This document shows positions 1,201 to 62,073 of a stretch of DNA of 63,318 bases, in pieces. Positions within the stretch are counted from its first letter, which is position 1, and each line of letters opens with the position of its first letter. A program made the translations under genes and the position numbers. The notes below the pieces were generated by a model. It did not search any database. It had not been told where the DNA came from and was given only the letters and a program-made list of their open reading frames with translations. The stretch covers positions 1 to 63,318 of the forward strand of contig CAXHJY010000468.1 of NCBI GenBank assembly GCA_964016885.1, given 5' to 3'. Origin of the DNA: Eledone cirrhosa. Taxonomy: Eukaryota.

Positions 1201-2843
1201 ATAAAAACAAATAACGAAACGAAATTAAATTTCGTTTCGTTTGTAACTCACTTTTGTATGACTGACGCTTAAACAATTAAGTTAAAGATGTACATCCATA
1301 TATGTATACTGAAATACTAGTATGTATATGAATACACACACGTATACATATGTAGATGTACTAAGTTTTTTCACTGGTCACTTTACTGTGAGTGGCCAGC
1401 TATTCTGTATGTAAACACACAGACGAACCGGTTTTTAGAGTCATACTGGTTTTTGAGGAAACACCTTTCCTCTATTCTCCAGAAAGCCAGACAAGGAATA
1501 TTGAACTAGTTTCGTTGTTGTTACAACTCATCAGCAATATTTACCTATCTTCCGGCCTCTCTAGAGAATCGTAAAAGCACATATCGTTATATGCTTTTTC
1601 TATGAAAATTAGTAGTGGGCAGACTAATTTGCATAGAGTGTGAGTAAGTACCGGTTCAACGGAGACGATAAAAACAAATAACGAAACGAAATTAAATTTC
1701 GTTTCGTTTGTAACTCACTTTTGTATGACTGACGCTTAAACAATTAAGTTAAAGATGTACATCCATATATGTATACTGAAATACTAGTATGTATATGAAT
1801 ACACACACGTATACATATGTAGATGTACTAAGTTTTTTCACTGGTCACTTTACTGTGAGTGGCCAGCTATTCTGTATGTAAACACACAGACGAACCGGTT
1901 TTTAGAGTCATACTGGTTTTTGAGGAAACACCTTTCCTCTATTCTCCAGAAAGCCAGACAAGGAATATTGAACTAGTTTCGTTGTTGTTACAACTCATCA
2001 GCAATATTTACCTATCTTCCGGCCTCTCTAGAGAATCGTAAAAGCACATATCGTTATATGCTTTTTCTATGAAAATTAGTAGTGGGCAGACTAATTTGCA
2101 TAGAGTGTGAGTAAGTACCGGTTCAACGGAGACGATAAAAACAAATAACGAAACGAAATTAAATTTCGTTTCGTTTGTAACTCACTTTTGTATGACTGAC
2201 GCTTAAACAATTAAGTTAAAGATGTACATCCATATATGTATACTGAAATACTAGTATGTATATGAATACACACACGTATACATATGTAGATGTACTAAGT
2301 TTTTTCACTGGTCACTTTACTGTGAGTGGCCAGCTATTCTGTATGTAAACACACAGACGAACCGGTTTTTAGAGTCATACTGGTTTTTGAGGAAACACCT
2401 TTCCTCTATTCTCCAGAAAGCCAGACAAGGAATATTGAACTAGTTTCGTTGTTGTTACAACTCATCAGCAATATTTACCTATCTTCCGGCCTCTCTAGAG
2501 AATCGTAAAAGCACATATCGTTATATGCTTTTTCTATGAAAATTAGTAGTGGGCAGACTAATTTGCATAGAGTGTGAGTAAGTACCGGTTCAACGGAGAC
2601 GATAAAAACAAATAACGAAACGAAATTAAATTTCGTTTCGTTTGTAACTCACTTTTGTATGACTGACGCTTAAACAATTAAGTTAAACCGGTTCGTCTGT
2701 GTGTTACATACAGAATAGCTGGCCACTCACAGTAAAGTGACCAGTGAAAAAACTTAGTACATCTACATATGTATACGTGTGTGTATTCATATACATACTA
2801 GTATTTCAGTATACATATATGGATGTACATCTTTAACTTAATT
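1201..2843. mobile_element. Retrozyme-like non-autonomous element, 467-bp family: about 3.2 tandem units (1201-2687) plus an inverted partial arm (2685-2843)
   Basis: Identical units start at 1201, 1668, 2135 and 2602. Orientation switches at agttaaa|ccggttcg with AAA microhomology. One HHR per full unit. Flanked by (AT)n on both sides. Confidence 0.85.
1497..1541 (-). ncRNA. Minimal type I hammerhead ribozyme (also at 1964-2008 and 2431-2475)
   Basis: Minus strand aatattg CTGATGA gttgt-aaca-acaac GAAAC-TA-GTT caatatt: perfect 7-bp stem I, 5-bp stem II, palindromic ACTAGT stem III, GUU cleavage triplet. Confidence 0.9.
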
Positions 2844-4530
2844 ATATATATATATATATATATATATATATATAAATATATATAAATATATATATATATA
2901 AATATATATATATATATATATATATATATATATATATATATATATATATATATAAATATATATATATATATATATAAATATATATATATATATATATAAA
3001 TATATATATATATATATATATATATATATATATATATATATATATATATATAAATATATATATATATATATATATAAATATATATATATATATATATATA
3101 TAAATATATATATATATATATATATATAAATATATATATATATATATATAAATATATATATATATATATATATAAATATATATATATATATATATAAATA
3201 TATTATATATATATATATATATATATATATATATATATATATATATAAATATATATATATATATATATATAAATATATATATATATATATATAAATATAT
3301 ATATATATATGAATATATATATATATATATATATATATATATATATGAATATATATATATATGAATATATATATATATATATATATATATATATGAATAT
3401 ATATATATATATATATATATATATATGAATATATATATATATAATATGAATATATATATATATATATATATATGAATATATATATATATATATATATATA
3501 TATATATGAATATATATATATATATATATATATATATGAATATATATATAATATATATATATATATATATATGAATATATATATATATATATATGAATAT
3601 ATATAATATATATATATGAATATATATATATATATATATATATATATATATATATATATATATATATGAATATATATATATATATATATATATATGAATA
3701 TATATATATATATATATGAATATATATATAATATATATATATATATATGAATATATATATATATATATATGAATATATATATATATATATATATATATAT
3801 ATGAATATATATATATATATGAATATATATATATATATATATATATATGAATATATATATATATATGAATATATATATATATATATGAATATATATATGA
3901 ATATATATGAATATATATATATATATATATGAATATATATGAATATATATATGAATATATATATATATATATATGAATATATATATATATGAATATATAT
4001 ATGAATATATATGAATATATATATGAATATATATATATATATATATGAATATATATATGAATATATATATATATGAATATATATATGAATATATATATAT
4101 ATATATATGAATATATATATATATATGAATATATATATATATATATATATATATATATATATATATATATATATGAATATATATATATATATATATATAT
4201 ATATATATATGAATATATATATATATATATGAATATATATATATATATATATATATATATATGAATATATATATATATATATATATATGAATATATATAT
4301 ATATAAATATATATATATGAATATATATATATATATATATATATATGAATATATATATATATATATATATATATGAATATATATATATATATATATGAAT
4401 ATATATATATATAAATATATATATATATGAATATATATATATATATAAATATATATATGAATATATATATATATAAATATATATATATGAATATATATAT
4501 ATAAATATATATATATGAATATATATATAG
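2844..4530. repeat. (AT)n tract; interruptions switch from TAAA to TGAA near 3300
   Basis: Directly visible. Confidence 0.98.
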
Positions 4531-59800: not shown

Positions 59801-62073
59801 TCTAATTGTAATACGTGACGTATTCTATTCTATAGCGATTAGGTCTTCAAAATGTTTATTATAAACATACAGAATATTTTCGAATATTCTATGTCTATAT
59901 TCACATATATATCGCTATTTCAGAGCATTTATTCCAATTTCTAATTTCTGCCGGACCGGCAACCGCTCTTTCAAACCAGTTCCTGTACACAGCTAAGTAT
60001 TCTATAAGTCTCTAGCTGTGTCATTCTCGATAAAAGCACTGGATATGTAGTCCTGATGATTTCTAACGAGAATGAAACGCGTAGATTACTTCCCTTGCTT
60101 TTATCGAGAATCTAATTGTAATACGTGACGTATTCTATTCTATAGCGATTAGGTCTTCAAAATGTTTATTATAAACATACAGAATATTTTCGAATATTCT
60201 ATGTCTATATTCACATATATATCGCTATTTCAGAGCATTTATTCCAATTTCTAATTTCTGCCGGACCGGCAACCGCTCTTTCAAACCAGTTCCTGTACAC
60301 AGCTAAGTATTCTATAAGTCTCTAGCTGTGTCATTCTCGATAAAAGCACTGGATATGTAGTCCTGATGATTTCTAACGAGAATGAAACGCGTAGATTACT
60401 TCCCTTGCTTTTATCGAGAATCTAATTGTAATACGTGACGTATTCTATTCTATAGCGATTAGGTCTTCAAAATGTTTATTATAAACATACAGAATATTTT
60501 CGAATATTCTATGTCTATATTCACATATATATCGCTATTTCAGAGCATTTATTCCAATTTCTAATTTCTGCCGGACCGGCAACCGCTCTTTCAAACCAGT
60601 TCCTGTACACAGCTAAGTATTCTATAAGTCTCTAGCTGTGTCATTCTCGATAAAAGCACTGGATATGTAGTCCTGATGATTTCTAACGAGAATGAAACGC
60701 GTAGATTACTTCCCTTGCTTTTATCGAGAATCTAATTGTAATACGTGACGTATTCTATTCTATAGCGATTAGGTCTTCAAAATGTTTATTATAAACATAC
60801 AGAATATTTTCGAATATTCTATGTCTATATTCACATATATATCGCTATTTCAGAGCATTTATTCCAATTTCTAATTTCTGCCGGACCGGCAACCGCTCTT
60901 TCAAACCAGTTCCTGTACACAGCTAAGTATTCTATAAGTCTCTAGCTGTGTCATTCTCGATAAAAGCACTGGATATGTAGTCCTGATGATTTCTAACGAG
61001 AATGAAACGCGTAGATTACTTCCCTTGCTTTTATCGAGAATCTAATTGTAATACGTGACGTATTCTATTCTATAGCGATTAGGTCTTCAAAATGTTTATT
61101 ATAAACATACAGAATATTTTCGAATATTCTATGTCTATATTCACATATATATCGCTATTTCAGAGCATTTATTCCAATTTCTAATTTCTGCCGGACCGGC
61201 AACCGCTCTTTCAAACCAGTTCCTGTACACAGCTAAGTATTCTATAAGTCTCTAGCTGTGTCATTCTCGATAAAAGCACTGGATATGTAGTCCTGATGAT
61301 TTCTAACGAGAATGAAACGCGTAGATTACTTCCCTTGCTTTTATCGAGAATCTAATTGTAATACGTGACGTATTCTATTCTATAGCGATTAGGTCTTCAA
61401 AATGTTTATTATAAACATACAGAATATTTTCGAATATTCTATGTCTATATTCACATATATATCGCTATTTCAGAGCATTTATTCCAATTTTCTAATTTCT
61501 GCCGGACCGGCAACCGCTCTTTCAAACCAGTTCCTGTACACAGCTAAGTATTCTATAAGTCTCTAGCTGTGTCATTCTCGATAAAAGCACTGGATATGTA
61601 GTCCTGATGATTTCTAACGAGAATGAAACGCGTAGATTACTTCCCTTGCTTTTATCGAGAATCTAATTGTAATACGTGACGTATTCTATTCTATAGCGAT
61701 TAGGTCTTCAAAATGTTTATTATAAACATACAGAATATTTTCGAATATTCTATGTCTATATTCACATATATATCGCTATTTCAGAGCATTTATTCCAATT
61801 TCTAATTTCTGCCGGACCGGCAACCGCTCTTTCAAACCAGTTCCTGTACACAGCTAAGTATTCTATAAGTCTCTAGCTGTGTCATTCTCGATAAAAGCAC
61901 TGGATATGTAGTCCTGATGATTTCTAACGAGAATGAAACGCGTAGATTACTTCCCTTGCTTTTATCGAGAATCTAATTGTAATACGTGACGTATTCTATT
62001 CTATAGCGATTAGGTCTTCAAATGTTTATTATAAACATACAGAATATTTTCGAATATTCTATGTCTATATTCA
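56807..62073. mobile_element. Retrozyme-like element, 310-bp family variant 2: about 8.1 units (56807-59316) plus about 8.9 inverted units (59316-62073)
   Basis: Period 310. Three fixed differences from variant 1 (agaCatag, attctCgtt, gaaAtcatc). Switch at gcgatata|atttctaa. Confidence 0.92.

Follow-up and report, generated by a model that had tools for sequence, protein, structure and literature searches.

The 63,318-nt window analysed here (positions 1 to 63,318 of contig CAXHJY010000468.1, assembly GCA_964016885.1) belongs to the 3.0-Gb genome of Eledone cirrhosa and carries a field of (TA)n repeats that hosts six non-coding arrays of hammerhead-bearing units, five coding Penelope-like elements (PLEs A, B1, B2, C and D) and at least three truncated PLE-type pieces. 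The 310-, 466- and 467-bp arrays are retrozymes without long terminal repeats (non-LTR retrozymes), with short non-coding tandem units, one type I hammerhead ribozyme in each and a dispersed multi-copy distribution. We show that these retrozymes carry the footprint of PLE insertion, since, like PLE families A to D, they lie in (AT)n as head-to-head arms whose 5' junctions vary while their 3' ends fall at two fixed points. That PLE machinery mobilised them in trans, as a preliminary description of this DNA had proposed, is therefore strongly supported, and we hold it with high confidence. With good but lesser confidence, we propose that Penelope-like reverse transcriptase (RT)/GIY-YIG proteins inserted the arrays in trans, probably from hammerhead-processed RNA circles.

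Insertion ends and arm geometry

Retrozyme insertions were sampled as 20 best-hit loci each for the 310 and 467 families, the first 40 clusters by position for the 466 family and the first 15 for the 310 family, and unit positions are numbered from the cleavage site. Outer 3' ends fall at one of two sites in each family, a short and a long one. They lie at 139 or 160-167 in the 310 unit (26/27 position-ordered, 28/29 best-hit), at 229-235 or 300-303 in the 467 unit (34/35, best-hit) and at 240-256 or 296-312 in the 466 unit (55/66, position-ordered), where the two windows make up 7% of the unit (binomial p about 1e-51). In the position-ordered 310 sample, 25/27 outer 3' ends lie in (AT)n with a few bases of microhomology, and the terminal C131 of short arms is mostly replaced by a target T; the true short site is therefore near 130 and the tail 35 nt long. 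By comparison, 5' junctions are variable and often self-complementary (204/210, 123/123, 80/77 and 211/211, and the stem sides 13/250 and 14/279, in the position-ordered 310 sample), and no target-site duplication is discernible inside (AT)n. The (AT)n flanks, two fixed unit positions and head-to-head arms of the window thus recur in copies at the sampled loci elsewhere.

The two ends are paired strictly. All 49 scored two-armed retrozyme insertions are head-to-head with one short and one long end (11/11 in the position-ordered 310 sample, 9/9 and 14/14 in the best-hit 310 and 467 samples, and 15/15 scorable of 22 in the 466 family), and no short+short or long+long pair with both ends on-site occurs among them. 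Adjacent hammerheads on opposite strands are likewise head-to-head in 15/15 cases within 1.2 kb, and in 9/9 scored by eye in another set. This pairing suggests that both arms were primed in one complex. Weighing against the proposed mode of insertion are the best-hit 310 and 467 samples and all PLE samples, which favour long ends and full units, and the 466 family, in which 11/66 ends are off-site and 7/22 pairs are unscorable because an end is off-site or at the locus edge. Long-arm 5' ends appeared enriched near the short site in the 467 family, as twin priming might give; this signal was dropped, since that sample was chosen for full units from the long end, and the enrichment is absent from the 466 and position-ordered 310 samples. 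At two loci (L036, 4337-4413; L174, 2543-2720) the arm junction holds a short duplicated back-and-forth segment, which suggests repeated template switching between two nascent cDNAs.

The coding PLEs follow the same rule. One short and one long end are found at 3/10 loci of PLE A, 5/10 of D and 6/10 of C (best hits), B1 and B2 have one of each, and a further inverted arm of A, among its 10 loci, is off-site. Retrozyme tails measure 35, 62 and 74 nt, as against 58, 58, 63, 91 and 137 nt in the PLEs, and kilobase-long overlapping arms also occur in the coding elements. Features described for PLEs include a bias towards (TA)n, a copy that is inverted and truncated at its 5' end, and, at one end, a tail of 30-40 bp (PMC8557442, PMC3846280). 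In vitro, the tail of a PLE spans the interval from one RT start site to a second, a signature described as peculiar to PLEs, and the Anolis PLE protein, a predicted dimer, cuts and extends both strands (PMC11167929).

The template of the arrays and rival explanations

The uniformity of the arrays and the state of their junctions make an RNA circle, in our judgement, the fairly probable template. In the position-ordered 310 sample, 12 multi-unit loci carry 10 haplotypes, 311- and 308-nt length variants among them, and within a locus essentially every unit of either arm, in arrays of up to 28 units, has the same one; 12 haplotypes are found among the 19 best-hit insertions. The cleavage site is crossed in register in 356/357 cases (a count that needs an intact upstream 10-mer), and 0/29 arm 5' ends lie within 6 nt of that site. 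Cut linear monomers are unlikely templates, because crossings stay in register and no arm 5' end is at the cleavage site. Monomer circles are also predicted to fold better than shuffled sequences (z -5 to -11). The only mosaic among the multi-unit insertions of these samples is a 310 insertion at locus L189 (5936-9201), whose two arms carry allele 200T in every other unit (8/9 units fit); a dimeric template is possible there.

Base changes were considered in the same light. ADAR enzymes prefer certain sequence contexts, and one stem I substitution, 276A>G (context UAG), has become fixed on four separate backgrounds, as expected if one edited molecule was read many times, a suggestive observation. 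At locus L052 (1073-4153), every unit in either arm of a 467-family insertion carries the same five private A>G changes, of which three lie within 5 nt (342-346), and the template of this insertion may have been edited from adenosine to inosine. A genome-wide signature of such editing was unsupported, the private fixed variants numbering 8 A>G and 8 T>C. An apparent rule of exactly one 120A unit per 310 insertion was a selection artefact: the major allele is 120G, and position-ordered sampling does not reproduce the rule.

Several points count against a circle, and they favour the best-surviving rival, in which PLE proteins copied long, linear, uncleaved multimeric transcripts, as for a tandem passenger resembling a short interspersed nuclear element, with circles, if any, a by-product. 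The balance of A>G and T>C changes is one of them. Two arms alone do not imply a circle, because coding PLE arms overlap by kilobases, and PLEs A, B and D likewise form tandems of two to three units with overlapping arms. Uniform parent arrays would also be able to yield uniform daughters through linear transcripts. In vitro, the Anolis PLE used mainly unprocessed RNA and needed no hammerhead cleavage for insertion (PMC11167929), and only 1/9 predicted Xenopus retrozymes cleaved (bioRxiv 10.64898/2026.07.22.740005). We nevertheless consider linear templates unlikely, since new haplotypes and length variants are fixed over all units of both arms with a single mosaic (L189), whereas old 467 arrays that grew by DNA duplication (L167, L068) are visibly mosaic, with period-7 repeats. 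On the linear account, each new variant would need a bottleneck of one unit and re-expansion to 8-28 units.

Far less probable is an ordinary satellite spread by unequal crossover, extrachromosomal DNA circles and fold-back replication at fragile AT repeats, with the hammerheads as relics of old PLE ends. The old 467-family arrays with their mosaic units and period-7 higher-order repeats (L167, L068) fit this account, as does one region with arrays of more than 20 units. It leaves unexplained the two fixed 3' positions, one per arm, the strict head-to-head polarity with respect to the ribozyme strand, the AT flanks, the thousands of dispersed short insertions and the covariation of the hammerheads, and even the old 467 cluster is closed at L168 by an inverted arm that abuts (AT)n. 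For primary insertions this explanation is largely refuted, and DNA-level amplification is better seen as a secondary process. Loci L167 and L168 (about 95.62-95.69 Mb), with long old 467-family arrays in a period-7 higher-order repeat, have the look of a retrozyme insertion becoming a conventional satellite.

Marginally more doubtful still is insertion by another (TA)n-targeting non-LTR element, a long interspersed nuclear element (LINE) or RTE, with twin priming. Twin priming gives non-overlapping arms and a poly-A or repeat-tail end; the arms here overlap and both start at fixed internal sites, and the coding PLEs of the genome show the identical pattern. In favour of this account are the lack of any retrozyme-PLE sequence link in our comparisons and the naming of LINEs as alternative candidates (PMC7229834). 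An assembly or amplification artefact from fold-back chimeras, which inverted arrays in low-complexity DNA and a contig beginning with an AT field might bring to mind, is very improbable, since the arms have different reproducible ends, different flanks and locus-specific haplotypes at dozens of chromosomal loci, and very deep coverage of the 310 unit, with loose ends in AT, is present in an independent sequencing run. Three runs of unknown kind contain a single 340-nt contig of this unit, which fits a tandem array and a circle alike and was not used as evidence.

Elements of the window and the search for a helper

All insertions landed in a polar (TA)n satellite with TGAA interruptions, which occupies 12 stretches between 1 and 63080 (17,165 bp in total). 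On its + strand TGAA occurs 605 times and TTCA 4 times. The field predates the insertions, because this polarity is equal on either side of insertions of both orientations. A one-polarity, TGAA-interrupted (TA)n field is itself an unusual satellite, and other copies of its elements occupy short plain (AT)n.

All six non-coding insertions are two-armed and head-to-head. The first, a 467-bp retrozyme at 1204-2842, has a left arm at 1204-2687 (sense on the minus strand, 3.2 units, long end), a right arm at 2685-2842 (sense on the plus strand, short end) and hammerhead cores at 1534, 2001 and 2468. The 466 family accounts for three: one with 470-471-bp units at 4531-5885 (left arm 4531-4690, short end; right arm 4692-5885, long end; hammerheads 5075 and 5545), a 466-bp retrozyme at 30918-34844 (arms 30918-32970, long end, and 32971-34844, short end; eight hammerheads) and a diverged copy at 40558-41249 with two sub-unit arms (left short end, right long end; hammerhead 40866). 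Of the two 310-bp retrozymes, that at 52311-56249 consists of 7.1 + 5.6 identical units (left short end, right long end; 12 hammerheads), and that at 56808-62072 (left long end, right short end; 17 hammerheads) carries a second haplotype, with three substitutions fixed in all 17 units of both arms. The preliminary description had counted six insertions of three unit families, 467, 466 and 310 bp, with one hammerhead per unit. The insertions, the unit lengths and the hammerheads stand; the lineages are two, not three, because the 466 and 467 units are homologous over their full length (pairwise local alignment, z=54). Likeness between the 310 and 467 units is limited to the surroundings of the hammerhead (z=6).

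The arrays contain no open reading frame (ORF) of at least 150 aa, and they are permuted tandem units without terminal repeats (no search for a primer-binding site or polypurine tract was made). Upstream of the hammerhead, the 466 and 467 units carry the octamer ATGCAAAT, a putative promoter element that we compared with newt satellite 2; the 310 unit lacks it. Newt satellite 2 has a promoter of small nuclear RNA type, although our literature search did not confirm this. Pattern searches of the hammerhead sequence gave 10,608 genome matches for the 466 hammerhead (exact 33 nt) and 12,908 for the 310 pattern, with 0 for controls, and the 467 unit has 209 genome candidates. Further hammerhead families at loci L190-L219 are older and dispersed, with an ACGCGT stem III, and L129 (7000-8001) holds a 466-related unit with an ACATGT stem III.

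A motif scan found a type I hammerhead in every full unit, 43 over the six insertions; stem III is palindromic in each, reading ACTAGT or ACGCGT. Each consists of CUGAUGA, a 4-5-bp stem II, GAAA, the palindromic stem III and a 6-7-bp stem I; in 25.3 kb of non-array segments there are 3 such motifs, against a shuffle mean of 0.01 and maximum of 1. Across 12 related variants, 88% of cells are paired compared with 28-54% in slid controls, and 9/14 pairs changed on both sides, figures that are not a probability because the sequences are related. The core and helices are intact, with a U-U pair at the base of stem II in many copies, and self-cleavage is predicted. This architecture matches most metazoan type I hammerheads, which cleave as dimers (PMC4209133). 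Short hammerhead fragments folded alone are not significant against shuffles, except for 467, as expected because such motifs work as dimers. Among the Rfam matches listed, the 467 hammerhead has only a sub-threshold HH9 match (37.7 bits, cut-off 52); microRNA matches were discarded as AT-repeat noise.

PLE A (6811-10910, plus strand; Neptune-like motifs) is a single, 5'-truncated arm with ORF1 at 6813-8090, ORF2 at 7997-10324 (RT and GIY-YIG) and a hammerhead at 10705; its long end lies at about 10913-10915 and the short end of the family at 10860. Its ORFs overlap in a -1 relation, and the heptamer T TTT TTA (8012-8018) stands in the right phase and is identical in 5/5 other copies. The heptamer is a candidate programmed ribosomal frameshift site, with no strong structure predicted 3' of it; ORF1 is described as frameshifted in some PLE types (PMC8557442 Fig. 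1). PLE B1 (14955-28761; Hydra-clade motifs) has an inverted arm at 14955-17529 (long end) and a sense arm with an ORF at 17553-19436, which is split by B2 and resumes at 27258-28761 (short end; hammerhead core 28556). The nested B2 (21454-27257) has an inverted arm at 21458-21907 (short end) and a sense arm with an ORF at 21868-23445, ending at 27254 (long end), and a hammerhead core at 26916 with a stem II of about 115 nt. PLE C (37347-40543, minus strand; Hydra-like motifs) is a single, 5'-truncated arm with a hammerhead core at 37545 and a stop specific to this copy ahead of the endonuclease; selenocysteine was rejected for its TGA, since 5 other copies have TGC and one has a deletion. PLE D (43308-49935) has an inverted arm at 43308-46960 (short end) and a sense arm at 46962-49935 (long end), with ends at 49882 and about 49940, a degenerate hammerhead at 49634, a CX4CxxC linker and an Asn-rich N-terminal part. 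Its Asn-rich insert (46227-46811, minus strand) resembles the N-rich inserts reported for Adineta Penelope elements. The Hydra-clade PLEs B (26916-27050) and C (37545-37491) have extended stems II of about 115 and 36 nt and an 8-nt stem III palindrome.

The five coding PLE insertions described earlier as RT+GIY-YIG elements were recovered, with a qualification as to domains: Pfam finds RVT_1 and GIY-YIG in A only and RVT_1 in D, and B and C were assigned by motifs. A and D are of the endonuclease-positive (EN+) type, with a CX2-5CxxC linker and YIG motifs (Neptune/Nematis type), an 830-aa ORF of the B family at L163 carries RWR (an RWK-like motif), DKT and CNCRNKANC, a linker of CxCX5C form (Hydra clade), and the linker of C, together with its (TA)n target and hammerhead, fits the Hydra clade, all these clades being assigned by motifs alone. 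The recent activity of PLEs A, B and D follows from their copy numbers of at least 40, at 98-100% identity, and from their full-length tandems. A clear sense-strand 3' hammerhead was found, as claimed, in four of the five, and the (AT)n target shared by coding and non-coding elements was confirmed in that all insert in one 17-kb field. The shared palindromic stem III holds for the retrozymes and A, B1, B2 and C, and fails for D, whose stem III is non-palindromic. The inverted two-arm geometry, attributed to both kinds of element, applies to all six retrozymes and to B1, B2 and D; A and C have one arm each in this window and occur with two at other loci.

The further claim that this locus shows a helper together with its passengers is not established. 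Pairwise local alignments showed no homology between the retrozyme units and the 3' regions of PLEs A to D or of E, a PLE-type family represented by a fragment described below. The best retrozyme-PLE alignment reached z 5.2 (466 against B, in a TA/TG-rich stretch), compared with z 54 for 466-467 and z 20 for D-related fragments and D. Tail lengths differ, a comparison of tail folding found no helper link among the window PLEs, and at 60 loci with related hammerheads there is no coding element with a retrozyme-like terminal repeat. Loci L246 and L248 were considered as helpers with a retrozyme-like end and rejected, being separate adjacent insertions. Retrozymes and PLEs are co-located because their target is shared: the window shows candidate helpers beside passengers and does not pair them.

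Three truncated PLE-type insertions had been omitted from the earlier list. Two are 5'-truncated two-arm copies of D-related PLEs, at 13855-14088 (3' end only, z=20 to the end of D; the same end also stands after a D-like ORF at locus L246) and at 35668-36050. The third, at 14721-14932 (minus strand), preserves the 3' part of a family E element, with its short end and a U3-variant hammerhead (core 14837), and no ORF was seen in it; it was considered as an end of PLE B and rejected, since it belongs to another family. In an 88-bp insertion at 13544-13631, an abundant family contributes a degenerate hammerhead-like end, which is fused with the D-related PLE's short end, and 43121-43264 and 63081-63318 are pieces of two more repeat families, the first with an inverted partial copy at many loci.

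Proposed mechanism and relation to known systems

We propose that retrozyme arrays would be transcribed, cut to units by dimeric hammerheads and ligated into circles. A PLE protein, probably a dimer, would bind this RNA at two sites 35-74 nt apart and cut both strands of (AT)n, as the footprint and the in vitro behaviour of the Anolis PLE suggest. Each target 3' end would prime at one of the sites via AT microhomology, giving the one short and one long arm end that are seen, and each RT would pass many rounds through the cleavage junction. The two cDNAs would then join at variable, often self-complementary sites, a step whose footprint is partly seen, to form a head-to-head array, and old arrays would later be enlarged through ordinary DNA duplication. 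It is tempting to go further, and we do so only tentatively, the odds being slightly against us: a dimeric Penelope-type RT/endonuclease may clamp one RNA circle at two sites, prime both (AT)n strands and roll in two complexes to leave a mirror-image array. Retrozymes would then be viroid-like replicons that recruit PLE proteins by RNA shape and not by terminal sequence, and the short+long pairing would reveal the way in which PLEs themselves produce inverted ends with a tail.

Non-LTR retrozymes, their circles and their mobilisation by PLEs as a hypothesis are in print (PMC7229834, PMC7761336, bioRxiv 10.64898/2026.07.22.740005), the published argument, in the portions consulted, being co-occurrence and similarity to the PLE pseudo-long terminal repeat (pLTR). 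The arrays described here resemble metazoan non-LTR retrozymes in their low-GC units of a few hundred bp, one type I hammerhead, short palindromic helix III, dispersed arrays and co-occurrence with PLEs, and the model for the latter is likewise a circle reverse-transcribed by a PLE (Cervera and de la Pena 2020; Li, Clavereau and Pollet 2026). In contrast, the consulted portions of the metazoan retrozyme papers mention neither head-to-head arms nor two fixed ends nor an (AT)n target, and the words 'inverted' and 'microsatellite' do not occur in that of PMC7229834. Insertion-end signatures of retrozymes were not found in the titles and abstract starts of the literature searched, supplements and most subscription papers being outside its scope. 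The 466-467-nt units slightly exceed the 150-450 bp quoted for metazoan retrozymes. Whereas 21/57 Xenopus retrozyme families are reported to be homologous to a PLE terminal repeat, the units here have no homology to the PLE terminal repeats tested, and circular RNA has been shown for published retrozymes while those described here are known from DNA. Newt satellite 2 offers a parallel as an about 330-bp hammerhead satellite transcribed into monomers and circles (PMC7229834).

With EN+ PLEs (Neptune-like for A and D, Hydra clade for B and C) the insertions share an inverted 5'-truncated copy, a tail on one end and two RT start sites (PMC8557442, PMC3846280, PMC11167929, PMC4209133), as well as an AT-rich or (TA)n target, partial tandems and 3' hammerheads. 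The tails here, at 35-137 nt, compare with the usual 30-40 nt of EN+ PLEs, in which a tail is optional. For the Anolis PLE in vitro the start site is reported as equal on both strands, whereas two-armed insertions here pair short with long (PMC11167929). The non-autonomous Chlamys PLEs (MRC1) are, like the retrozymes, non-coding, PLE-mobilised and multicopy head-to-tail; their 3' ends resemble those of autonomous partners, and no such resemblance was found for the retrozymes here, which carry canonical hammerheads (PMC8557442).

Our findings address both how animal retrozymes re-enter DNA and how PLEs form inverted, tailed insertions. The reaction can be read base by base from thousands of very young insertions, which stand beside intact, recently active PLE families of two clades. 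New here are a side-by-side comparison, in which four coding PLE families of two clades follow the short+long rule of the retrozymes, and the finding that homology pointed to no helper. The system offers three small RNAs, each with two predicted priming sites, together with (AT)n substrates and four proteins as candidates. Should the circle step prove true, target-primed rolling-circle reverse transcription would be a route from viroid-like RNA to satellite DNA, and might serve as a basis for tools that write multi-copy cassettes into AT repeats.

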